In this document: positions 10,577-49,376 of the stretch, piece by piece
Layout: the number at the start of each line of letters is the position of its first letter
Position numbering within the stretch: position 1 is the stretch's first letter
Assembly (NCBI GenBank): GCA_963816485.1
Contig: CAWFKU010000004.1
Location: forward strand, 642,454 to 706,453
Direction: 5' to 3'
DNA: 64,000 bases
Source: an uncultured Actinomycetota bacterium
GTDB taxonomy: Bacteria; Actinomycetota; Actinomycetes; Streptosporangiales; Streptosporangiaceae
The notes under the pieces: model-generated
The model's database searches: none
What the model was told of the DNA's origin: nothing
Seen by the model: the letters and a program-made list of their open reading frames with translations, nothing else
Translations under genes and position numbers: made by a program

Positions 10577-12983
10577 ATGCCGCTGTCGGCCGACGTGCCC
10601 GTGTCCGGGCTGCGGGCGCCGGCCGAGATCCTGACCGACCCGTGGGGTATCCCGCACATGTACGCGTCAAGCGCGCACGACGTGTTCTGGACGCAGGGGT
10701 TCCAGGTCGCGCGTGACCGGCTATGGCAGATCGACACCTGGCGGCGGCGCGGCCTCGGGCTGCTGGCGCAGGTGTGGGGCGCGGAGTATGCCGAGCAGGA
10801 CCGGGCCGCCAGGCTGTTCCTGTTCCGCGGGGATATGCACGCGGAATGGCGGGCCTACGCCGCCGACACCGAGGACATCGCCACCGCGTTCACCGCCGGG
10901 ATCAACGCCTACGTGGCCCTGACCCAGCAGGACCCTTCCCGGCTCCCGCCGGAATTCCGCGAGCTCGGCTACGAGCCCGCGTTCTGGGCGCCGTCCGACG
11001 TGGTCCGCATCCGCAGCCACGGCCTGTTCCATAACGTCACCCAGGAAGTGGCCCGCGCGCTGATGCTGCGCGACTTCGGGCCAGCGGCGGAGGAACTGCG
11101 GCGGCGGCGCGAGCCGGGCGGCGAGCTGACCGTGCCCGATGGCCTGGACCTGAGCGTCATCCCCGACGACGTGCTGCGTGACTACAAGCTCGCGGTGGCG
11201 CCGGCTCAGCTCCGGGGGCAGGCTGGAGCCCCGGCCGCGGCCGGGACCGGGCCCGCGCAGGCCGGCGAGGGCAGCAACAACTGGGCGCTCGCGCCGGAGC
11301 GGACCGGGACCGGGCGGGCACTGCTGGCCAACGACCCGCACCGGACCGTGTCGCTGCCCTCACTCCGGTACGTCGTGCACCTCAGCGCGCCCGGCTTCGA
11401 CGTGATCGGCGCCGGGGAGCCGGCCTTGCCCGGACTGTCGGTCGGCCACAACGGCCACGTGGCGTTCGGGTTCACGGTGTTCTCCGTCGACCAGGAGGAC
11501 CTGTATGTGTACCGGACCCGGCCGGGCCAGCCCCGGGAATACTGGTACCGGGACCGGTGGGAGCCGATGACGGTGGTCCGTGAGGAGATCCCGGTGCGGG
11601 ACTCGCCGCCGGTGCCGGCCGAGCTCTGGTTCACCAGGCACGGGCCGGTAATCCGCTCGGCCCCGGAATCCGACGCCGCGTTCGCCGTGCGGGCGGCGTG
11701 GCTGGAGCCGGGCATGGCCCCGTACCTGACAAGCATCGAGACCATGCGGGCACCGGACGCGGAGCGGTTCACCGCCGCGCTGGTCCGGTGGGGCGCGCCC
11801 GGTGAGAACCTGGTCTACGCCGACGAGTCCGGCACCATCGGCTGGAAGGCGGCCGGGCTGACCCCGGTCCGGCCGAACTGGGACGGCACCCTGCCGGTGC
11901 CTGGCGACGGGCGCTACGAGTGGGCCGGCTTTTACCACATGGACGCGCTGCCCGCGGAGGTGAACCCGGCGCGCGGCTGGATCGCCACCGCGAATGAGAT
12001 GAATCTTCCGCCTGGGTTCCCTGACGACCGGGTCATCACCCGCGACTGGCCCGCGCCGTTCCGCGCGGAGCGGATCGCCGAGGTCCTCGGCCCGGCCACG
12101 GGGAGCACCGTCGCCGACATGGTGCGCCTGCAGGGCGACTACGTCAGCTTGCCCGCGCGGCGGATAGTGCGCGCTCTGGCCGGGCGGCGCTGGACCGACC
12201 CGGCCGCGGAGCGCGCGGCCCGGATGCTGGCCGGCTGGGACGGGACCCTGGCCGCGGACTCCGCCGCCGGCCGCCGTGTTCCAGGTGTGGTACCGGCGGC
12301 ACCTGCGTCCTGGCCTCCGCGAGCTGGCGCTGGCGCAGATCCTGCCGCCCGGGAAGGTCCCGGCGGCGCTCGCCGCCGTGCTGCCCGGCGATGACCTGGC
12401 CGGGGATCCCCGGATCGACCTGGACCTGATCGAGAAGCCAGGCGATCGGCTTGGCGCGAACCCGGCCGCGGCCCTGGCCGGCCTGTTCGAGGCCACGCTG
12501 TCCGCCGCCATGGCCGACCTGAGTAGCCTGCTCGGCCCCGCCGAACAGGACTGGGCCTGGGGCCGGCTGCATCAGGCCCGGCTCGCCCACCCGGCCGGGC
12601 CCGGGATGTCCGCTGCAGCGCGCGAGCAGGCCGCGATCGACCCGGTGCCGCGCGGCGGCAGCTCGGACACGGTGGGCGCGACCACCTACGCGCCCGATTT
12701 CACGCAGGCCGCTGGCGCCACGTTCCGGCTGGTCGTGGACGTGGGCGGGTGGGACAACTCGGTGGTCATGAACAGTCCCGGCCAGTCAGGCGATCCGGCC
12801 AGCCCGCACTACGCCGACCTGCTCGCGCCGTGGGCGGCGGACGGAGCCGTTCCCCTGCTGTACAGCCGGGATCGGATCGAGGCCGTGGCCCGCGAGCGGA
12901 TCCGGCTGGTACCAGCGGGCTCAGTGACCGGCGGTCCGGCCGCCGTCGATGTGCAGGATCTCTCCGGTGACGTAGGGCGATGA
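10577..12983 (+). pseudogene. Penicillin acylase (Ntn-hydrolase) family gene interrupted by a single frameshift near 12265-12275
   Basis: ORF 10577..12394 carries GSNNWALAPERTGTGRALLANDPHR (beta-chain N-terminal Ser nucleophile region). ORF 12276..12983 continues the family C-terminus (FQVWYRRHL...NSPGQSGDPASPHYADL). Removing one G in gccgccGgccgcc restores DSAAAAVFQVWYRR. No N-terminal signal peptide is visible. Confidence 0.75.
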
Positions 12984-33243: not shown

Positions 33244-34669
33244 ATGCGCGGAACCATGAGGCATGCGTGCGCCGCGATAGCGGCGGTCGCGACGCTCGGC
33301 GGGCTCGGAGTCCTCGGGGCCGGGGCCGCCAGCGCGGCTGGAACCGCCAGTCCGGCAACGGCCCTCTCGGCGGCTGTTGGGGGCGCTCGGCTGTGGGTGA
33401 GCCGCTACGACGGCCCGGGCCACGGCTTCGACGGCGCCAGCGCGGTGGCGGTGACCGGGGGTGGCCGTAAGGTGTTCGTGACGGGAACCAGCGGGCGCAT
33501 GGCCGCCACGATCGGCTACGACGCCTCCACTGGCGCGCGGCTGTGGGTCAAGCGGTACGGCGGGCCCGGTGACCGCGGAGCCAACGGCGAGGCGGTCGCG
33601 GTTAGCCCGGATGGCGGCACGGTGTTCATGGCCGGGTTCAGTTCCGGTGCCACCTCACGCGATGACTACGTCACGATCGCGTACAACGCCGCAACCGGGG
33701 GGCGGCGCGGCGGCGCACTACAACGGCTCGGCCAGCAACGGCGATGAGGCATTCGCCCTGGCGGTCTCACCGGACGGCAAGACCCTGTTCGTCACCGGGC
33801 AGAGCGCCGGCGTCGGCTCAGGCGCCGACTACGCCACGATCGCCTACAGCACGGCCACCGGCGCGCGCCTGTGGGCGGCGCGGTACAACGGCCCCGGCAA
33901 CAGCTACGACACCGCGAGGTCCCTGGCGATCGGGCCTGGCGGCCACAGAGTATTCGTGACGGGGTTCAGCACGGGGGCGAGTACTGCCGGGCAGTACGCC
34001 ACGGTCGCCTACGACGCTGCCTCCGGCAGGCAGCTCTGGGTGCGGCGGAGCCCTGGCCCGGGCCTCGCCTTCGCTTCATCGGTTGCGGTCGGTCCGGGCG
34101 GCGGCCGGGTGTACGTCACCGAGACCAGCGGCATCACCGCCGCGACCCTGGCCTACGACGCGGTCAGCGGAGCGCGGCTGTGGGCCACGCGGTATCGGGG
34201 CCAGGACTCCCGGGGTGCCTTCGCCGCCAAGGTGGCCGTCAGCCCGGACGGCGACACGGTATACGTCGCCGCCACGTCCGGACAGGTGGTCAGCGACGAC
34301 TACGCCACCATCGCCTACAACGCCAGCACCGGTGCGCGAAAGTGGCTCCGGCTCTACAACGGTCCCGGCAACAGCGTGGACGACGCGACCGCCCTGGCCG
34401 TCAGCCCGAGCGGCACGGTCTACGTCACCGGCGCGAGCAGCAGCGGCAGCGCGACCGCGACTGACTACGCCACGGTCGCCTACAGCGCCGCTGGCCGGCA
34501 ACTATGGGTTGGCCGATACAACGGCCCGGCCAACGGCGAAGACCACCCAGCCGCGATCACAGTCAGCTCGGCAGGCAGCCGAGTGTTCGTCACCGGCCAG
34601 AGCCTCGGCGCCACGACCTCCGGCCACAACGCCGGCTTCGACTACGCCACCGTCGCCTACTCCGGCTAG
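33244..34669 (+). pseudogene. Secreted SBBP-like beta-propeller repeat protein, disrupted near 33697-33715
   Basis: Signal peptide MRGTMRHACAAIAAVATLGGLGVLGAGAASA. About 9 repeats of DYATIAY(N/S/D)A.TGARLW..RYNGPGNS.D.A.A.AVSPDG..V(F/Y)VTG.S. ORF 33244..33747 and ORF 33569..34669 are the two halves. The junction repeat lacks the LW residues, which suggests a small out-of-frame deletion in a G-run. Confidence 0.7.
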
Positions 34670-39349: not shown

Positions 39350-40291
39350 TCACCGGGTGAAGCGTTCCCACCATTCCGGATCCGGACGGAACGGCGCTGC
39401 CGGCAGGCCGGTGGCATCGGTGTCCACCCGGTAGACCAGTCCGGCGGCCAGATCGGAGCGGCGCTGCTCGTCGGTCCAGCCCTCTGTCGCTGTCGTGACG
39501 AAGAGCCGGTGCAGGCCGGGGCCGCCGAAGGCACAGCACGTGCACTGCTGGGCCGGGATGGGGTACACGTCGCGCAGCGAGCCGTCGGGTGCGTAGTGGT
39601 TGACCCGCCCGCCGCCGTAGATCGCCACCCAGAGGTCACCCGCAGCGTCCACCGTCATCCCGTCTGGTGCTCCGATGTCTTCGGGCACGGTGACCAGGAC
39701 TCGCCCGGCGGAGATGGTGCCGCGATCACCGTCGAAGGTGAACGCGTGGACCACCCGCGGGCCGCTGTCCACTAGGTACATTGTCCGCCCGTCGGGGCTC
39801 CAGCCAATTCCGTTGGAGATCGTCAGGCCCTCGAGCACCACCTCGGTCCGCCCTGTCCGGTCCAGCCGGTAGAGCGCGCCCCCGCCGGTGTGGTGGTCGT
39901 CGGCCAGGGTCCCGCCCCAGAACCTGCCCTGGGGATCGCAGGCGCCGTCGTTCATGCGGGTCCCGGCCGGTGCGACCTGGGCGATGGTGCGGTGGGTGCC
40001 GTCGAGCGCGAGGTGAACGAAGCCGCGCCCGGCCCCCAGTACCCAGCCGTCGTCCCCCTGGATGGGAGCGATCATCCCGACCGTTCCAGGCAGCTGGTAG
40101 ACCCCGACGCGCTCGATCAGGCCGTCCTCGCGGAGCAGGCCCCGGGCGACCCGTCCGGCCAGGATGTCGACTGCCAGCAGCTCGCCGCGGCGGCCGTCCC
40201 ACCGGATGCCCTCACCGAGCTGAGTCTGCTCGGTATTGCAGGCGACTGCCTGGCCGTCTCGCAGGGGACCGTTTTTCGTGTTAGTTACCAT
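39350..40291 (-). CDS. SMP-30/gluconolactonase/LRE family protein (sugar lactonase)
   Basis: ATG 40291 after GGAGG. QLGEGIRWDGRRGELLAVDILAGRV..., NDGACDPQGRFWGGT, ISNGIGWSPDGRTMYLVDS, PDGMTVDAAGDLWVA. Last gene of the minus-strand operon. Confidence 0.85.
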   Translation of the reverse strand: MVTNTKNGPLRDGQAVACNTEQTQLGEGIRWDGRRGELLAVDILAGRVARGLLREDGLIERVGVYQLPGTVGMIAPIQGDDGWVLGAGRGFVHLALDGTHRTIAQVAPAGTRMNDGACDPQGRFWGGTLADDHHTGGGALYRLDRTGRTEVVLEGLTISNGIGWSPDGRTMYLVDSGPRVVHAFTFDGDRGTISAGRVLVTVPEDIGAPDGMTVDAAGDLWVAIYGGGRVNHYAPDGSLRDVYPIPAQQCTCCAFGGPGLHRLFVTTATEGWTDEQRRSDLAAGLVYRVDTDATGLPAAPFRPDPEWWERFTR

Positions 40292-40293
40292 TG

Positions 40294-41340
40294 TCAGCCT
40301 CCGAAGTCGACGACGACCTTGATGTCGTCTGGCCCGCGCTGCAGGGCGTCGGCGATGTTCTGGGGCGGGACCCGGCGGGAGATCAGCCGGGCCAGCCAGG
40401 CCCGGTCGGCCCGGGCCAGCTCCTCGGCGGCCCGGTAGAAGTGCCGCCGGTTGGCGTTGACCGAGCCGAGGACCACGTTGTTCTGCAGGACGACCTGTTT
40501 GGCGACGTCGGCCGTGGATAGCCCGCTCGGCGCCCCTCCGCTGCCCACTCCGGTGAGGCAGACCACCCCGCCGGCGCCGACGTGGCGGATCGAGTCGATG
40601 ATCACCGAGCCGACCCCGGTGCACTCGATCACGACATCGGGTTCGAGGCCCAGGGCGTCAATGGCCCCGGCATGGTAGGTAGCGCCGAGGTCGGAGACGA
40701 GCTGAGGCTTGGCGCCCTTGGTGACCTGGTCGAGGACGTGGACGTCGAGCCCGTGCTGGACGCCGATCAGGGCGGCGAGCATGCCGATCGGGCCGGCGCC
40801 GGTGACCAGCACGTGCCGGGGTTCCCAGAAGGCCCGCGCTCGCATGGCCGCGACCAGTTCCCAGGCCTTGGCCACCACGGTGGCCAGCTCGAGCAGCACG
40901 CCGAGGACGCCGAGGGAGGGGTCGAGCTTGGTGAAGTACCCGGGTTCGATCCGCCAGCGTTCGGACATGAACCCGTCGATCTGCTTGATGCCCCGCTCGG
41001 TGTACTGACCGTTGCGGCACATATCCCACTCACCGACGGCGCAGTTGGGGCAGGGCACCGGGTCGGGGCGCCGGACGATCCCGACGATAAGGTCGCCGGC
41101 CTGCAGCCCGCTGCGCGGCCCGGGATCCACGACCCGGCCGAGCGACTCGTGGCCGAGGATGAGCCGGTCCCGCCCGGGAGGCGCCCAGCCGTAGGCGCCC
41201 GAGGTGATCTCGACGTCCGTTCCGCAGATGCCGACGGCCACCGCCTCGACCAGGACCGAGCCGGTGCTCTGGTCCGGTTCGGGGACCTCCTCGAAGCGAA
41301 CCGACCCCGCGACGCCCGGCTGAACCGTTACTGCTTTCAT
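40294..41340 (-). CDS. Zinc-dependent MDR dehydrogenase, glucose 1-dehydrogenase-like
   Basis: MKAVTVQPG...VAVGICGTDVEITSGAYGWAPPGRDRLILGHESLGRVV..., CPNCAVGEWDMCRNGQYTERGI, VLVTGAGPIGMLAAL. Its stop lies 2 nt before the lactonase ATG, and its ATG overlaps the upstream stop. Confidence 0.8.
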   Translation of the reverse strand: MKAVTVQPGVAGSVRFEEVPEPDQSTGSVLVEAVAVGICGTDVEITSGAYGWAPPGRDRLILGHESLGRVVDPGPRSGLQAGDLIVGIVRRPDPVPCPNCAVGEWDMCRNGQYTERGIKQIDGFMSERWRIEPGYFTKLDPSLGVLGVLLELATVVAKAWELVAAMRARAFWEPRHVLVTGAGPIGMLAALIGVQHGLDVHVLDQVTKGAKPQLVSDLGATYHAGAIDALGLEPDVVIECTGVGSVIIDSIRHVGAGGVVCLTGVGSGGAPSGLSTADVAKQVVLQNNVVLGSVNANRRHFYRAAEELARADRAWLARLISRRVPPQNIADALQRGPDDIKVVVDFGG

Positions 41341-44300
41341 GACTGCTCCCCAGATAGTCTTTTTCGCTGGGCCGGAGGCGCGATCTGAATCACCGGGAGT
41401 TGAGCTCTCCGTCGCGGGAGAGCGGGCGCTGCCCCTCGCCCGGCGGGACGATCGGCCCGCAGCCGCGCGCATGACGGGCAGAGCTCGCGGTCCAGAAGGG
41501 CCGCCATGTGATCCGGCAGGCGATCGCGGATGAATTCCCGGTGCGCGGGCGTCTGCGTCGGCGCGCCGCATTCGCTACAGGTCAGCAGCGGCTGCTCGCA
41601 CACGACGGTTCCGGTGATGACCGTGCGGCGCACGAGGTCCGGCGCGGCGCCGCCGAGCGCGCCAGCCAACAGGTCGACCTCATCCTCGATCCGGATGGCG
41701 CCGGTCGGGCATACCTGGGTGCAGGCGCCGCAGCCGATGCACAGCTCGGCTGGGCGGGTGAAGTCGAAGTAGGCGAGCCGGCCGGCGTCGGTGTCTGACA
41801 TGCGCAGCGCGTCGACGCCCATCTCGCTGCAGGCTGCCATGCACAGGCCGCAGCCGATGCAGACGTCGCAGCGCAGGCAGCGGCGCGCCTCGTCGTGTGC
41901 CATCGCGTCAGTCAGGCCCTCCTCGATCTGGACGTAGTTGCCGAGGCCGACAACGTCGTCGGCGGTCCGCTCGGGCATCACGGCACGGGGCAGGTAGGTG
42001 CGATCGTCCGCCCCGACGGTCAGGGGAATGACGTCGGCGCGGCGTACTGGCGTGCCGGTGGCGACGTCCATGGGCTCCCCGCGCAGCCAGGCATCGATCG
42101 CGTTCGCGGCGATCTTCCCGGAGCGGATGGCCTCCACGACCGTCCGCGGGCCGTGCTCGACGTCGCCCCCGGCGTAGACGCCTGGCACCTTGGTCATCAG
42201 AGTCTTCGGGTCGGTGAGGATGAAGCCGTGGGTGGTCTCGACCTCGCTGCCGTGCAGGATCGTCAGGTCGGTGCCCTGACCGGTGGCGAGGATCACGTGG
42301 TCGCCCTCGAGCTTCAGCAGGCGGGCGGCGTCGAACTTCGGATCAAAGGCTCCGGTCTCGTCGTGGACCTGCTCGCAGAACTGGAAGGTGGTCTCGCCGT
42401 CCGCCCCGATCCGGACCGGGCCCCAGCCGGGGTGCAGTTGCACGCCTTCCCCGACGGCGTTCTCGATCTCGTGGGCGCTGGCCGGCATCTCGCGGCGGTT
42501 CTCAAGGGAGACCATGTCGACATGCGTTGCGCCTTGGCGCAGGGCCGTCAAGGCGACGTCGATCGCGACGTTGCCGCCGCCGACGACGATCACCCGCGGC
42601 CCTACCCGGACCGGCTGGCCGCTGCGCACGTCCCGAAGGAAATCGATGCCCCCGAGCACGAAGGGCTGATGGACACCTTCGATCGGGATCAGGCGCGAGC
42701 GCTGGGTGCCGAGGCCGAGGAACACGGCGTCGTAGTTCTTGCGGAAGGCATCGAGGCTGCCGACCTCGGCACTGGTGCGGATCGCGATGCCCAGCGCCCG
42801 GATCTGGTTGAGCTCCTGGTCGAGGAGGTCGGGCGGCAGGCGGTAGGCCGGAATGCCGTAGCGCAGCATTCCGCCGGCCTTCTCCTGCTCCTCCAAGATC
42901 TCGACCTCGTGACCGAAGGTGCGCAGGTAGTAGGCAGCGGTGAGGCCGGCTGGGCCGAGCCGGCGATGCCGATCCGCTTGCCGCTGTCCGGCGCGATCTC
43001 GGGTTTCGGGTAGCCGCCGTCGGCGAGGCAGTGCTCGGCCGCCTTGGCCTTCATCGGCCGGATGAACACGGCGCCGTTGCTGTCGCCGCGAACGCAGGCC
43101 GATTCGCACGGCGCCGGGCAGACCAGGCCGCAGGTCAGCGGCAGCGGGTTGTCACGCCTGATGACCTCGATCGCCGCCCGGTAGTCGCCATGGCCGATGT
43201 GAGCGATGAAGCTCGGGATGTCGATGTTGGCCGGGCACGTGCCGTGACACGGCGCGGCCTGGTGCTCGAAGCACAGCCCCTCCGGGCAGGACTCGCGCCG
43301 GGCGTGACGCTCCCACTGCTGGCGGTAGTAGCGCAGCGAGCTGCCCAGCGGCCACGCGGCCGCCAGCCCCTGCGTGCCCAGCTCGAGCGCGACTTCGTCG
43401 AGTGCTCGGAGATCGGCGGCGTCACCGCGGCCGAGCGTTAGCTCGGCCACCAGGCGGCCGGCCCGGGCGAGCAGGGGCCGCACCGGATCGCCTTCGGCGT
43501 TGTCGGCGAGCTGCCAGTGCCGGTAGAGCGCGCGGCGCGTCTGGCGCAGCAGGCACGCGCCCTCGGCCATCACCATCAGCGTGGACGGCACGGGCTCGAC
43601 GCCGGCGGAGGCGAGCGACAGCGGCCGGCATGACACGTCGGCCTCGGACAGCGGTAGGAAGCCGCCCAGGCCGTCGTCGAACACGAGCACCGGGTCCTGG
43701 CCCGCCACCTCAACGCCACCACCCCAGGCGTCGATCTGCCGGCGCAGGCTCTGTGACTGGGCGAGCTCGACCAGGCCGCGCTGCTTGATGCCGCGCCGCA
43801 GCGTCAGCAACGACGCCCCGGGGCCCGACGCGCCGGCGAACAGCAGGGCGATCCGGCACCAGGTCTCAGGCGTGTGGATGAGCCGCGAGGCGTCGTTGGG
43901 CGGTCCCTCCGCCCACGGGCCGGGGTGGCTGTCGCGCTGCACGGTCAGCTGCATGCGGGGCGTGGTGACGTGGGCGAGCGAACGGATCGCGTCGACGGCG
44001 TTCAGGAGGGCGGCTTCGTGACCGTTCAGCTCGGCCGGGAGGCGCAACTGGACCTCGCGGCTGTCGCGCAGGCCAGCGGCGATCAGCACCCCCTCGGCCA
44101 GCAGCCGCGGAGCGCCATCGAGGACCGCGGCTGTGCCGCGGGCGCGCGGATCGAGGCCGGTGGCATCGATCACCAGTACCGTAGGGCCGATGCCGCGCAG
44201 AAACCGGCGCCAGGCCACAGAGACCGGCTCGCCCGCACGGCTGCTCTCCGCGAGGCCCGACTCCTGCACGCGCTGCAACCGCTGCAACGGCGTCAGCTCC

Positions 44301-44416
44301 CGCGCCTGGGCCAGGCCCGGCAACGCGCCGGCGAGCGTGGCCGCCGGCGGCACAGGACCGACCAGGGCGGCGGCGCCCGGGTCAAGCCAGCTCGGCAGCG
44401 TCTGGACCGCGCTCAT
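41337..44416 (-). pseudogene. Fusion oxidoreductase: degenerate NuoF/RnfC-like N-domain + GltD-like (4Fe-4S + FAD/NAD(P)) + C-terminal 2x[4Fe-4S] ferredoxin. Reading frame broken once near 42955
   Basis: ORF 42689..44632 (ATG 44416) ends in out-of-frame text after GKRIGIAGS. ORF 41337..43109 continues with PAGLTAAYYLRTFGHEVEILEEQEKAGGMLRYGIPAYRLP..., IVVGGGNVAIDVA, VYAGGD, then CLRCDVCIGCGLC and CIGCGACTQVCP. One missing base in ggctcggcccagcc (expected GSGPAG) restores a single ~1026-aa ORF. This is either a genuine frameshift or a homopolymer sequencing error. Confidence 0.75.
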
Positions 44417-44940
44417 GGCGAGGTGTCCTCGCCGCCCGGCGGCTCGGCGAGGATGTGCCGGGCGTAGCGCTCGCGGCGCGGGTCCGGCAGCTCGTTGGCC
44501 TCGCCGAAGGACAGGCAACCGGTCACGCACTTGGTGACGCAGGCGGGCTGCAGCCCGGCGTCGAGCCGGTCCATGCAGTAATCGCACTTGACCACCTTGT
44601 TCGTGGCGGGGTCCCACTGCGGAGTGCCCCACGGACAGGCCGCGATACAGCTCTTGCAGCCGATGCAGAGGCTGTCCTCGACAAACACGATGCCGTCCTT
44701 CTCACGTTTTTGCATCGCGCCGGTCGGGCACGCCCGGACGCACCACGGGTCTTCGCAGTGGAAGCACGGCATGAACACGAAGCGGGTCAGGGGCAGTCCG
44801 TCGGCCTCGACCGGTTCCAGCGCGATGACCCGGCACGGATCGGGGCCGGGACCGAGCTGCTTGTTGGTCTTGCAATGGACTTCGCAGGCCAGGCACCCGA
44901 TGCAGTTGGCCTCGTCGTGGCGAAGCTCGTATTTGCTCAT
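44413..44940 (-). CDS. 4Fe-4S dicluster subunit (DmsB/PsrB-like electron-transfer subunit)
   Basis: CIGCLACEVHC, CFHCEDPWCVRACP, CIGCKSCIAACP, CDYC...CVTKC. ATGA-type overlaps with both neighbours. Confidence 0.85.
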   Translation of the reverse strand: MSKYELRHDEANCIGCLACEVHCKTNKQLGPGPDPCRVIALEPVEADGLPLTRFVFMPCFHCEDPWCVRACPTGAMQKREKDGIVFVEDSLCIGCKSCIAACPWGTPQWDPATNKVVKCDYCMDRLDAGLQPACVTKCVTGCLSFGEANELPDPRRERYARHILAEPPGGEDTSP

Positions 44941-47090
44941 CCGGCTGCTCCTTCCGGTGTCCGGCGCCTCACCTGCACGACCGTCTCGGTCAGCGCATTG
45001 CCGCCGCCGGCGGGATCGAAGTCGTAGAGCTTGCCGTGCTGCAGGCGCTGGTCGGCGACGCCGAGGCCGCGGGCGCGGGTGGCGAGTGGCACCGTGGCGC
45101 CGTAGCCGTGCAACATGAACACCGCGTCGGGATGGATCCAGCGGGTGACCTTCGCCGGCAGGCAGCCGGTGTAGCGGCCACCGCCGTTGACCTCCACCTC
45201 GTCGCCGTCGGCGATCCCGAGCGCCGCGGCACGGTCGGGGTGGATCCAGAGCACCTGTTTGGGTGCTCTCTCGTTGAGCAGGGGATTGTTGAGCGACTGG
45301 CCCTGCGCGAGCGTCGCCGTCTTCGCGAACAGCAGCGTGAACTTCTCGCCCGTCGGCGCATCTTTGGGGACGTACGCCGGCAGGCTCTCAAGCCCGGCCT
45401 GCTTGAGGACCTCGCTCTCGATCTCGATCTTCCCTGAGGGCGTCGGGAACGTGAGCTCGTCGCGGGGGATCAGTTTCGGAGCCGCCGCCAAGCCGACCAG
45501 GCCGGCCTCGCGCATCTTCGAGACGGTGACGCCGGTGCCATCGAGCTGGTAATTCCACAGCTCCTCGATGGTCTCGAAGTCAAGCGCCTGTCTGATGCCC
45601 ATCCGGTGCAGGATCTCGCGGAAGATCCACCACGCCGGGCGGCTGTCGAAGCGCGGTGCGATCGCCTGGTCGCGCATGGCGAAGACCGGCACCGGGCCGT
45701 TCATCTGGCAGAGGATGTTCGCGCGCTCCAGGTAGGTCGACTCGGGGAGGATGACGTCGGCGAACCAGCCCAGTTCCGAGTAGCGCACGTCGATCGAGAC
45801 GAGCAGCTTCAGCTTCTCGATCGCCCGTTGCGTCGCCTCCGGGTCGGGCATGCCGGTGAACGGGTCGTGGCGGTAGGCGAAGTAGGCGCCGATCCCGTAC
45901 GGCTGCCCCGTCTCCATCGCGGCGAAGGCCTGATGCAGCATGCCGATCGCCGGATCCCATTGCGGCCGCTTGCCGCCAGCGCCATCCACGCGCGGCTCCC
46001 TGACCTCCGGCACCCGATCTATCAGATGGTTCAAGCCCTTGCGGCCGTAGTGCTCGGGCGGCTTCCCCAGCACGCATCCACCCGGAAGCTCGATGTTGCC
46101 CATCAGCGCGTTCAGGATCAGCGCCGACCGGCTCACGTAAAACGACTGCTTGTGACGAGCTGACATCCACCCCGGATGGAAGATCACATGTGGTGCGTCC
46201 GCAGCGATCTCGGTCACGAACGCGCGAAGCTCGGCGGCGGGAACGCCGGTGTGCGGCTCCTGCCACTCCGGCGTTGTGTCCTTAACCGCCTCCCGCAGGT
46301 AGTCCAGGCCGGAGACGAAACGGGCGACGAAGTCCTTGTCGTAGGCATCCTGCCTCAGGACCTCATGGATTATGGCGAGGTTCAGCGCGTAGTCGCTCTT
46401 CGGTCGCACCTGCCAGTAGCGGGTGGCCTTGGACGCCGTGATCGTGGCGCGCGGATCGATGTAGGTGCAGCGCATCCCCCTCGCCACCGCGGCCATGAAC
46501 GCCTTAGCCTCCTTGACCATCAGCGATTCGACGACATTGCGGCCGTAGAGCACGAGATGCTTGCAGTGCTGGTAGTCGAACAAGAGCCCTGCGGCGCCGA
46601 AGCCGTAGAGCGAGCGTGTGGCGTTATGAACATTGCCGGCGCAAGCGGCATCGTGATCGAAGTAGTTCGGCGAGCCAAGCGCCCGAACGAAGGTCTGGGT
46701 CAGGTCAGTAAAGGGGCCGCCACGATCGGAAAGCGCGATACCGCGCCCGCCGAAGACATCGATCGTCTCAGTCAGCTTCTCGGCGATGTAGTCGAGGGCC
46801 TCGTCCCAGGACACCCGCCGCCACTGGCCGCCGCCACGCTCGCCAGCACGGATCAGCGGCGCCTGCGGCCGCTCGTCGTCAGACTCCAGAAACAGGCCGG
46901 CCGCGCCCTTCGCGCACAGGCTGGCGCCGAGGGCCCGGTCGTGCGTATTGCCCTGCAGCCAGGTCACACGGCCGTCCTCGACCGTCACCTCCATCGGGCA
47001 ACGCACCGCGCACATGCCGCACATGCTGTAGACCGTGCGCCGGCCTGGAGCACCCACGCCGCTTACGTTCGGTGCCATAGGGGAAGTCAT
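44937..47090 (-). CDS. Molybdopterin (bis-PGD) oxidoreductase catalytic subunit, cytoplasmic (no Tat signal), substrate unknown
   Basis: ATG 47090 after GGAG. The N-terminal FS0 motif is CGMCAVRC...CAKG. A candidate Mo-ligand Cys is in FDHDAACAGNVHNATRSLYG. The C-terminal beta-barrel region reads LWIHPDRAAALGIADGDEVEV. No RRxF(L/V)K twin-arginine motif upstream. Confidence 0.85.
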   Translation of the reverse strand: MTSPMAPNVSGVGAPGRRTVYSMCGMCAVRCPMEVTVEDGRVTWLQGNTHDRALGASLCAKGAAGLFLESDDERPQAPLIRAGERGGGQWRRVSWDEALDYIAEKLTETIDVFGGRGIALSDRGGPFTDLTQTFVRALGSPNYFDHDAACAGNVHNATRSLYGFGAAGLLFDYQHCKHLVLYGRNVVESLMVKEAKAFMAAVARGMRCTYIDPRATITASKATRYWQVRPKSDYALNLAIIHEVLRQDAYDKDFVARFVSGLDYLREAVKDTTPEWQEPHTGVPAAELRAFVTEIAADAPHVIFHPGWMSARHKQSFYVSRSALILNALMGNIELPGGCVLGKPPEHYGRKGLNHLIDRVPEVREPRVDGAGGKRPQWDPAIGMLHQAFAAMETGQPYGIGAYFAYRHDPFTGMPDPEATQRAIEKLKLLVSIDVRYSELGWFADVILPESTYLERANILCQMNGPVPVFAMRDQAIAPRFDSRPAWWIFREILHRMGIRQALDFETIEELWNYQLDGTGVTVSKMREAGLVGLAAAPKLIPRDELTFPTPSGKIEIESEVLKQAGLESLPAYVPKDAPTGEKFTLLFAKTATLAQGQSLNNPLLNERAPKQVLWIHPDRAAALGIADGDEVEVNGGGRYTGCLPAKVTRWIHPDAVFMLHGYGATVPLATRARGLGVADQRLQHGKLYDFDPAGGGNALTETVVQVRRRTPEGAAG

Positions 47091-47636
47091 CGCAATCTCC
47101 GTCCCCGCGCCGCCATTGGCGTCAGGCCTCCGGGCCGCGCGGCGCTTGGCTGGCGGTGTACTTGTCCTCGCATCGATCGATCGTGGCACCCTCCCGGAAT
47201 GGCAGGCAGGGCCGTAGCGCCTGCTCCAAGGGGACCAATGGCCTCGCGAGGACCGGGGCGGCGAGGCAGCCGGGTAGGCGGGGGACTGTGCATCCGCGAC
47301 AGGGCGTCGGCACGCCCAGGGTCGTCGCCGTCGGCGGCGGCAATATCGTCGAGGCTTGGGCTTCGAAATCATGGTGGCCGAGGCCGAGGTGGCCGAGGAC
47401 GCGGGCGCCACTCAGTAAGCCCAGGCTCCCTTCAGGCACCCGATGAGCCGGGAGATCGCCGGCTCCCCAGGTCGCCGATCTCGTGGCCGGACCGCAGGTC
47501 CTTGACCAGGAGTATGGCCGTCCGATCTGGGCATCGACAACACCGGGCACTAGGAGGAGGTACCTATCCCGGCCGACGTCAACAGCACGCTGCAGACCGG
47601 CGGCGACGTGCCAGTGGAGGAAGCTGGCGGCATGTA

Positions 47637-48944
47637 ATGTCTTTCTCGCCAACTTCCAGCAAAAGGGGCCTGGCAGTGGATACTGGCCTTGCGCTTGTCG
47701 GTCTGACGCTGCTGCTCGTCGCCGCGGTATCCCGACCTCTGTCGAGCACGCCCATCACGCCCGCGATCGTGGTGGTCGCGGTCGGTGTTCTGGTCGGCCC
47801 GCTCGTGCTTAACGACCTGACGGTGCGACCCACGAGCTCGACGGTGCAGACACTCGCCGACGCGACGCTCGCGGTGGTGCTGTTCTCGGATTCCTCGCGC
47901 GTGAACCTGCGGGCGCTGCGGCGTGAGGCGTCGATGCCTGTCCGCTTGCTTGGCCTCGGTCTGCCGCTGACGATCGTGCTGGGTGGGCTGATCGCGGTTG
48001 CCCTGTTCGGCTCGTTCTCGATCAGCGAGGCGCTGATCCTTGGCGTGATCCTCGCTCCGACCGACGCCGGGCTTGGTAGCGCGGTCGTCACGGACACGAG
48101 GCTTCCGCAAGTTGTTCGGCAGTCGCTGAACGTCGAGAGCGGCCTGAACGACGGGATCTGCGTCCCGCTGCTGTTGATCGTGCTGGCTACCGTCTCCGGC
48201 GCTGGCAGCGAGTCCCACCCGTTGCGGGTGCTCGCCGAGGAGATCGGCTACGGGCTGCTCGGCGGGCTCGCTGCTGGCGCGCTCGCCGCGGCGGTTGTGA
48301 TCCTTGCCGGACGACGGCACTTGATCGACGATGCTTGGCGGCAGATCATTCCGTTGTCCTCAGCGGTGCTCGCGTACGGGATCGCGAACGCCCTGGGCGG
48401 TTCGGGATTCATCGCCGCGTTCGTAGCCGGCGCACTGTTCGGCCTGCTCGCTGGCGACCGAGCCGCGGGAATGATGCCCTTCACGGAGGAAGCCGGGGCC
48501 GCGCTCGACAACGTTACGTTCCTCGTGTTCGGTGCCGTGCTGCTCGGCCCGGCGTTCGAGCATATGAGCTGGCAGATCGCGCTGTATGCCGTGCTGAGCC
48601 TCACGGTCGTGCGGATGTTGCCGGTGGCGATCTCGCTGTGGGGCACTCACGCGCGGGTTCCGACGGTCGCGTTCATTGGCTGGTTTGGCCCGCGCGGGCT
48701 TGCGTCGATCGTGTTCGCGGTGATCGTCGAGGACGCGCATCTCCCTCACGCCGGGACGATCGTCGCGGTCAGCTACCTGACCGTCGGGCTGTCGGTCCTA
48801 GTACACGGGCTTTCGGCCGCGCCGCTGGTAAGTCGCTATGCCAGCTGGTACCAAGCCGCCGCGGAGAAGAGCCCTCCTGTGATGGAGAGCCAGCCAGCGC
48901 ACGAGCACCGGGCGCGGGGATCCGCCGCGGTGCCGAGCAGGTGA
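47637..48944 (+). CDS. Cation:proton antiporter (CPA1, Na+/H+ exchanger family)
   Basis: C-terminal part of ORF 46176..48944. ATG 47637 (or GTG 47676). LILGVILAPTDAGLG, SGLNDGICVPLL, WFGPRGLASIVFA. About 12 TM segments. Confidence 0.8.
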   Translation: MSFSPTSSKRGLAVDTGLALVGLTLLLVAAVSRPLSSTPITPAIVVVAVGVLVGPLVLNDLTVRPTSSTVQTLADATLAVVLFSDSSRVNLRALRREASMPVRLLGLGLPLTIVLGGLIAVALFGSFSISEALILGVILAPTDAGLGSAVVTDTRLPQVVRQSLNVESGLNDGICVPLLLIVLATVSGAGSESHPLRVLAEEIGYGLLGGLAAGALAAAVVILAGRRHLIDDAWRQIIPLSSAVLAYGIANALGGSGFIAAFVAGALFGLLAGDRAAGMMPFTEEAGAALDNVTFLVFGAVLLGPAFEHMSWQIALYAVLSLTVVRMLPVAISLWGTHARVPTVAFIGWFGPRGLASIVFAVIVEDAHLPHAGTIVAVSYLTVGLSVLVHGLSAAPLVSRYASWYQAAAEKSPPVMESQPAHEHRARGSAAVPSR

Positions 48945-49376
48945 CCGCTGGCCTAGGCCAGTAGCGGGTCGGCCATCATAGACAGCCATTCTCGGCGGCG
49001 CGGTTGGAGGTGACCACGGTCGAGGACCAGGACGGAACACTTTCTGCGGCTTCCTGGAACTGGCTCGCGACAACCTCGTGCAGCTGCGCACCGGGCACGC
49101 GTGCACGCTCGACGACATCGCCCGCGACCGCGCCGGCCGCGGTGAGGCGCTGACAGATGAGGTGCAGGTCATGCGCGAGATGGTCATTCGCCTGTACCCG
49201 CGCTGGGCACGTCTCATCACTGGTACCAGCCCATTGGCCATCACCGCATACGGCGCGGCCCGCGTCGCCCGGCGGTGTGGTCGCCGGGTGAGCACCTGGT
49301 GATCGACTGGGCGCACAGGGCGGGCGGGCTGGTGTTCTGCGCCCGCGGGTGCGGCAGCAGAAGCGAAGGCAATACG

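Follow-up and report, generated by a model that had tools for sequence, protein, structure and literature searches.

The window analysed here, a 64,000-nucleotide stretch from an uncultured Actinomycetota bacterium, belongs to contig 4 of a genome that comprises 6.47 Mb in 7 contigs and has a G+C content of 70%. It carries a minus-strand operon that encodes a molybdenum-containing catalytic subunit, an iron–sulfur subunit and a large third subunit, together with a glucose-dehydrogenase-like gene and an SMP-30/gluconolactonase-like gene (Table 1). The subject of this analysis is the third-subunit gene, which runs from 44416 to 41337 as one gene of 3080 nucleotides; this length leaves a remainder of two on division by three, that is, the gene is one base short. 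It is listed as two overlapping minus-strand open reading frames (ORFs), 42689..44632 and 41337..43109, both of which had been named in an earlier reading of the sequence alone (hereafter the sequence-only reading) and both of which are present. The domain architecture of the subunit and the nature of the one-base break are considered together below.

The N-terminal 380 residues of the third subunit are a homologue of NuoF/BfuB, the family that comprises the 51-kDa subunit of complex I and the HydB, NfnB and StnB proteins, and this remote homology is secure. Residues 1–380 give no match to Pfam even at E ≤ 10, with PF01512, PF10531 and PF10589 included, and the NCBIfam NuoF model TIGR01959 covers residues 198–371 at E 7e-9, scoring 34.5 bits against a cut-off of 558.65. 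A phmmer search of 1.84 billion representatives returned a few divergent family members and then NuoF and HydB proteins at 24–32% identity, some of which align across residues 30–378, and hhalign of the family against a NuoF set matched residues 30–380 to NuoF 26–422 (99.9%, E 3.5e-33). The AlphaFold2 model of residues 1–380 has a mean predicted local distance difference test score (pLDDT) of 87.7 and a predicted template modelling score (pTM) of 0.89, and Foldseek places it with 9mqx_B, HydB (7p92_B), NfnB (9bov_B and 9n5u_B), StnB (8oh5_B) and Aquifex NuoF at template modelling (TM) scores of 0.72–0.81. The likeness extends over the whole fold, about 390 alignment columns, and the layout of Rossmann-like domain, SLBB domain and four-helix bundle is retained. 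The sequence-only reading, which had aligned roughly the first 400 residues with NuoF-type domains by eye, is thus borne out by hhalign, Foldseek and NCBIfam.

The cofactor sites of this domain are lost. The flavin mononucleotide (FMN) loop of NuoF, GLRGRGGAGFPTGVKW (SGLRGRGGAGFPTGVKW), aligns with GLAESSRAGEPVSVAW (SGLAESSRAGEPVSVAW) in the window, in agreement with the degenerate loop proposed from the sequence alone; where NuoF has GRGGAGFPTG, the third subunit reads AESSRAGEPVS, and the FMN/NADH site is not retained. The GAYICGEE...LEG segment (GAGAYICGEETA...LEG), of about 25 residues, is deleted in all family members. The counterpart of the ESCGxCxxCR motif that holds the N3 iron–sulfur cluster is LADNAEGDPVRPL, in which the cysteines are gone, and the position of the fourth N3 cysteine falls within a 5-residue deletion. 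The sequence-only reading had sought the iron–sulfur region at AEGACLLRQTRRAL, which is some 20 residues too early: this stretch aligns with EETCIVAATHNLAR of NuoF (EETCIV...), ahead of the true cluster motif, and its cysteine corresponds to a conserved NuoF cysteine outside ESCGxCxxCR. Its claim that the ligands are absent nevertheless stands, and both the FMN and the N3 sites remain lost in the corrected profile alignment. All three losses (FMN loop, GAYICGEE segment and N3 cysteines) are common to family members down to 35% identity, and they therefore represent an old, selected state. The domain most likely has a structural or docking role in place of a redox one; the earlier suggestion of a non-catalytic scaffold fits this family-wide loss. 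The module also differs from NuoF and BfuB in forming one chain with a GltD-like flavoprotein instead of a subunit of its own with a NuoE-like partner, and in falling under every curated profile cut-off.

The remainder of the subunit consists of recognizable redox modules. A Fer4_20 domain of the type that carries two [4Fe–4S] clusters is followed by a flavin adenine dinucleotide (FAD)- and NAD(P)H-binding domain and by a C-terminal ferredoxin domain, and the second dinucleotide motif, the NAD(P)H-type GGGNVA, is present as VVGGGNVAIDVA. The first GxGxxG motif is broken by the frame break in the assembly and is intact (GSGPAG) in relatives. The best Protein Data Bank (PDB) matches of the flavoprotein part are 9bov_A, NfnA (9n5u_A) and 8oh5_C, with E values from 5e-98 to 3e-82; 9bov_A was deposited as a molybdopterin oxidoreductase, chain A of an Nfn-ABC entry, and 8oh5_C is chain C of a StnABC entry. 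In these A and C chains of about 1170 residues a molybdenum-type domain is fused to the flavoprotein, whereas here the partner is a separate, genuine Psr-type molybdenum enzyme. The C-terminal piece scores 372 bits with NF009410, against a cut-off of 516. Read across the break, the subunit resembles GltD and NfnB in its Fer4_20 domain with two [4Fe–4S] clusters, its FAD domain and its NAD(P)H domain, and differs from them in the added N-terminal NuoF fossil, C-terminal ferredoxin and cysteine-rich tail. Relative to the bifurcating (Bfu) enzymes HydABC, NfnABC and StnABC, the FMN site has been lost and the five operon genes encode no NuoE-like domain. A full-length AlphaFold2 model of an intact relative, P0003 (pLDDT 71, pTM 0.50), folded the domains with an unreliable mutual arrangement and was left unused. 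The tail itself (41400–41560, residues ~950–1000) contains a four-cysteine CSECG...CPSC knuckle, found in most relatives and absent in P0101, which may form a Zn ribbon or bind a further metal.

The partner subunits are of the polysulfide and thiosulfate reductase kind. The catalytic subunit begins MTSPMAPNVSG...CGMCAVRC, and the cysteine motif of the FS0 cluster (CGMCAVRC...C) is present; its N-terminus shows no RR motif or twin-arginine (Tat) signal. PhsA is its best NCBIfam match, at 483.8 bits against a cut-off of 694, and its best PDB match is Thermus thermophilus PsrA (2vpw, E 1e-100). A cysteine of the subunit aligns with residue 173 of 2vpw_A, the molybdenum ligand of PsrA. The iron–sulfur subunit scores 140 bits with the NCBIfam DMSO_dmsB model, for which the cut-off is 214. 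The stop and start codons of the catalytic, iron–sulfur and third-subunit genes overlap, and neither the operon nor the conserved cluster of relatives contains an NrfD/PsrC membrane subunit.

The catalytic subunit, with the E value of 1e-100, the FS0 cysteines and the cysteine at PsrA position 173, and the beta subunit, a four-cluster Fer4_11 protein, are shared with PsrABC and PhsABC (2vpw). The operon differs from both in lacking a Tat signal and a PsrC anchor, in place of which it encodes a soluble NAD(P)-linked flavoprotein. The closest catalytic subunits, of the PsrA/PhsA kind, act on polysulfide or thiosulfate. In green sulfur bacteria, Psr-like complexes with a PsrA-like subunit that lacks a Tat signal and faces the cytoplasm have been proposed to oxidize sulfite (PMC3906813). 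The family described here shares with them the cytoplasmic, Tat-less PsrA-like subunit; theirs, in contrast, pairs with PsrB and a quinone-linked PsrC, and the present family is without PsrC. No paper on a soluble, NAD(P)-linked three-subunit form was found within the full-text library searched.

The trio of subunit genes is widely distributed. It is conserved at 63–90% amino acid identity in metagenome-assembled genomes (MAGs) of several phyla, among them MAGs labelled Solirubrobacterales, Rhodocyclaceae, beta proteobacterium, Chloroflexia, Acidobacteriota and Desulfomonilaceae. With L014 and L015, contigs from other samples, the window has only about 9.5 kb in common (39368–48947, at 84–89% nucleotide identity), which holds the five-gene cluster and a divergent Na+/H+ exchanger gene. 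The distribution of the trio fits horizontal transfer or mis-binning. The glucose-dehydrogenase-like gene adjoins the trio in most relatives, and the SMP-30-like gene lies beside it in the closest relatives only.

Table 1. Positions of the third-subunit gene, its domains, the neighbouring genes, the break and the other frame switches. Plain numbers are window positions; C-prefixed positions refer to the genome.
Feature	Position	Strand	Assignment and remarks
Third subunit	41337..44416	-	1026 residues if read across the break; NuoF-like remnant, Fer4_20, FAD/NAD(P) domain, 2x[4Fe-4S], Cys-rich tail
Degenerate NuoF/BfuB-like module	43277..44329	-	Residues 30-380
Fer4_20, two [4Fe-4S], GltD/DPD type	43028..43273	-	Residues 382-463; Pfam PF14691, E 3.7e-18
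FAD/NAD(P)H-binding Pyr_redox_2, GltD/NfnB-like	42117..42956	-	Pfam PF07992, E 1e-25
C-terminal 2x[4Fe-4S] ferredoxin	41691..41867	-	Pfam Fer4_7, Fer4_21
Missing base	between 42956 and 42955	-	Within the FAD-binding fold, in the codons for GSGPAG (GxGxxG)
GCCGGC palindrome	42945..42950	.	Beside the missing base
GCCGGC palindrome	42959..42964	.	Opposite side of the missing base
Catalytic Mo-bisPGD (molybdenum bis(pyranopterin guanine dinucleotide)) subunit, PsrA/PhsA-like	44937..47090	-	~717 residues; Pfam Molybdop_Fe4S4, Molybdopterin, Molydop_binding
Iron-sulfur subunit, DmsB/PsrB-like	44413..44940	-	175 residues; Pfam Fer4_11; stop overlaps next start (ATGA)
Zn-dependent glucose-dehydrogenase-like protein	40294..41340	-	348 residues; Pfam Glu_dehyd_C, ADH_N; start overlaps third-subunit stop (ATGA)
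SMP-30/gluconolactonase-like protein	39350..40291	-	Pfam SGL, E 1e-73; start approximate
Orphan C5 cytosine methyltransferase	C2:747149-748174 (locus L095 1441-2466)		Sole Pfam DNA_methylase gene in the genome
Frame switch, dnaG	C1:485488
Frame switch, smc	C5:664878
Frame switch, metG	C2:1041357
Frame switch, metK	C2:2147122
Frame switch, leuA	C2:1012097
Frame switch, clpB	C4:205339
Frame switch, katG	C4:1125775
Frame switch, carA	C2:2157416

The break itself is a single missing base. In the upstream frame, meaningful sequence stops with ...KRIGIAGS, and the downstream frame continues with GPAGLTAAYY (GPAGLTAAYYLRTFGHEVEILEE), as the sequence-only reading had described for a one-base frameshift in the GxGxxG loop near 42955. 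When the DNA is aligned with that of two intact relatives, these read GGCTCCGGT at this site and the window reads GGCT-CGGC; the codons are GGC TCG|GCC in the window and GGC TCC followed by GGT or GGC in the relatives, so that a CC pair has lost one C (on the plus strand, GG has become G). The comparison with close kin rests on metagenome contigs, because no full-length orthologue of the third subunit was found in same-genus genomes. Relatives L013 (95.0% nucleotide identity) and L014 (89.5%) are intact across the gene, and in an alignment with them the one base at the break is the only gap in 3 kb whose length cannot be divided by three. Intact relatives of the third subunit are 983–1033 residues long and share at most 96% identity with it in the N-terminal 480 residues. 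The ratio of nonsynonymous to synonymous substitution rates (dN/dS) is 0.24 upstream and 0.34 downstream of the break relative to L013, and 0.25 upstream and 0.24 downstream relative to L014; selection downstream of the break is not relaxed. Among the database entries, the 1026-residue ENA protein P0004 has good identity up to ...AIDAWLRG, after which its last ~240 residues are rich in Arg, Pro and Gly and out of frame; it is a further family entry in which the gene call was carried across a frame error.

Similar lesions occur throughout the assembly. A detector based on codon log-odds, trained on long ORFs with a high G+C content at third codon positions and registering a same-strand change of frame at least 45 nucleotides before the stop of the first frame, returned 139 candidate frame switches genome-wide, or 21.5 per Mb; its sensitivity on simulated single-base indels is 62%, with a median position error of 3 nucleotides. 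It recovers the break under study (at window position 42950) together with window sites 12270 and 33698; the one-base lesions at about 30980 and 33145 in the window are not flagged. Each of the four top-ranked candidates checked with hidden Markov models (HMMs) is one protein in two pieces: in methionine–tRNA ligase (metG), DNA primase (dnaG) and ThiI a single HMM match crosses the junction, and ClpB is split likewise. Ten lower-ranked candidates were drawn at random, nine could be evaluated, and in six of these the two pieces again belong to a single protein (photolyase, class-II fumarase, MetK, CarA, an APH-family kinase and a glycosyltransferase). A tblastn search of the genome found no second copy of dnaG or smc. 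Essential single-copy genes are broken, and there is no life without primase or S-adenosylmethionine synthetase; the assembly therefore holds indel errors, which probably number 100–200. Comparable damage is seen among relatives, since the closest genome matches of the gene are Microflora Danica MAGs, a collection built from Nanopore reads only with one round of Medaka polishing (PMC12313526). In three of these, the same gene contains from 2 to at least 7 frame switches. In L020, L021 and L022, MAGs of this collection labelled Chloroflexia and Acidobacteriota, the orthologue is recovered by tblastn in 3 to 9 pieces in differing frames; these orthologues look like error-laden long-read consensus and not like decay.

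The frame switches share a sequence context. An unbiased k-mer test over the 20 nucleotides on either side of the switch sites selected the palindrome GCCGGC, which is found within this distance of 40% of the sites and in 10% of same-gene control windows (4-fold; Fisher p 1.3e-16). Two copies of the palindrome are present at 7.2% of the sites and in 0.27% of the controls (27-fold), and its positions pile up between −16 and +12 of the estimated switch. The missing base in the third-subunit gene is flanked by one copy on either side, the motif is also found at the dnaG, metG, clpB, thiI and katG breaks, and the acylase break at window position 12270 sits on a GCCGGC at 12266. The same lesion class is thus found in essential single-copy genes and in a shared context. 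A bias of the detector was ruled out as the source of the enrichment, as simulated random indels give 10%, equal to the controls. Ordinary homopolymer error was likewise ruled out, since the longest homopolymer near the 139 sites is of background length (mean 3.29 versus 3.25) and the base was lost from a CC pair; the C/G homopolymer run invoked in the sequence-only reading was an overstatement of a CC shortened to C. The frame switch at window position 33698 lies at a GGGGG run.

Motif-linked indels that arise from base modification are described for Nanopore consensus sequences (PMC10687267, PMC11610573, PMC6591954). The present indels resemble them in being gathered at a short palindrome and not at homopolymers, with platform, modification and motif specificity presumed for this genome. 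The clustering at GCCGGC, a palindrome of the NaeI/NgoMIV type, points to modified bases as a possible cause of faulty base-calling. One candidate for the enzyme responsible is an orphan C5 cytosine methyltransferase, the gene of which lies between a shikimate dehydrogenase gene and infC with no adjacent restriction gene. No match to an NgoMIV-type restriction enzyme (PF09015) was found in the genome, a negative that is uninformative because control genomes are equally silent.

The missing C is most likely an indel error of a long-read metagenome assembly, with the gene probably intact in the organism, and an error associated with GCCGGC is favoured over one of the homopolymer kind. A real deletion would instead mark a recent inactivation, making the gene a pseudogene in an accessory, island-borne operon, with GGCTCGGCC as the true genomic sequence at the break and neither product having an intact FAD-binding fold. 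The lesion is, after all, present in the assembly, and the frame switches at 12270 and 33698 show that damaged genes lie nearby. Such a fresh inactivation is disfavoured because lesions of this type, in this context, also affect essential single-copy genes of the assembly; moreover, the 3 kb contain no further lesion, all remaining gaps being multiples of three, downstream dN/dS is unrelaxed, and the other four operon genes are intact. It is accordingly judged unlikely. Several points do weigh against an assembly error. The operon is accessory, being absent from 24 same-genus genomes, and it lies in a stretch that the sequence-only reading had called an island with several damaged genes, where a true pseudogene would not be surprising. 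Three of the nine evaluable lower-ranked detector candidates were false positives (adjacent genes). The case for an error is statistical and not direct, the Nanopore-type long-read origin that the genome would share with its relatives is deduced from contiguity, error pattern and the relatives themselves, and the modification link, which the motif clustering suggests, is hypothetical.

Two further explanations would leave the gene functional as assembled, and both were rejected. Were a programmed −1 ribosomal frameshift to make the full-length protein from two frames, the shift needed would have the right sign and the 420-nucleotide overlap of the frames would accommodate it, but GCC GGC TCG GCC (CAG) contains no slippery heptamer of the form X XXY YYZ, all clean relatives are in one frame, and the site is within a catalytic motif; this explanation is scarcely credible. 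Almost as improbable is a true split gene, in which a NuoF-like plus Fer4_20 polypeptide and a flavoprotein plus ferredoxin polypeptide would assemble non-covalently. Comparable domain boundaries are indeed split in related enzymes, as in the separate A and B subunits of NfnABC and StnABC; the break here, however, falls inside the first beta–alpha–beta unit of the Rossmann fold and not between domains, no start in the downstream frame would preserve GxGxxG, and no relative is split at this place. Of the three readings offered from the sequence alone, a sequencing error is thus retained in its GCCGGC-associated form and not in its homopolymer form, inactivation is disfavoured and a programmed shift is discarded.

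With the frame restored, the gene would encode a subunit of about 110 kDa, the third of a soluble, cytoplasmic, three-subunit molybdoenzyme. Electrons would pass from NAD(P)H to the FAD of the GltD/NfnB-like domain, and from there through the two Fer4_20 clusters to the C-terminal 2x[4Fe–4S] domain. The PsrB-like subunit would then hand them on to FS0 and to the cysteine-ligated Mo-bisPGD of the PsrA-like subunit, and the path could also run in the opposite direction. The NuoF/BfuB fossil keeps its fold, and its FMN site and N3 cluster are lost throughout the family. A tentative proposal, somewhat less likely than not to be right, is that these proteins constitute a soluble NAD(P)-linked family of Psr/Phs-type molybdoenzymes in which a cofactor-less NuoF fossil and a GltD/NfnB flavoprotein replace PsrC, the fossil being the remnant of a Bfu/Nfn-type bifurcating module turned docking scaffold, and that the cluster has spread horizontally among soil Actinomycetota, Betaproteobacteria, Chloroflexota, Acidobacteriota and Desulfomonilaceae. 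The degenerate NuoF module is real, and with its partners it would represent a modestly novel enzyme architecture.

The frameshift as such is of little interest, as it is most likely an artefact, and it carries a caution: single-base ‘pseudogenes’ in this genome and in sister long-read MAGs need read support before they are given a biological reading. The interest lies in the family, in which a NuoF module that has retained its fold after the loss of FMN and cluster is joined to a soluble, pyridine-nucleotide-linked Psr-type molybdoenzyme. Were the enzyme characterized, the polysulfide/thiosulfate reductase family would gain a cytoplasmic, NAD(P)H-coupled branch, and there would be a natural case of a redox module made into a scaffold.

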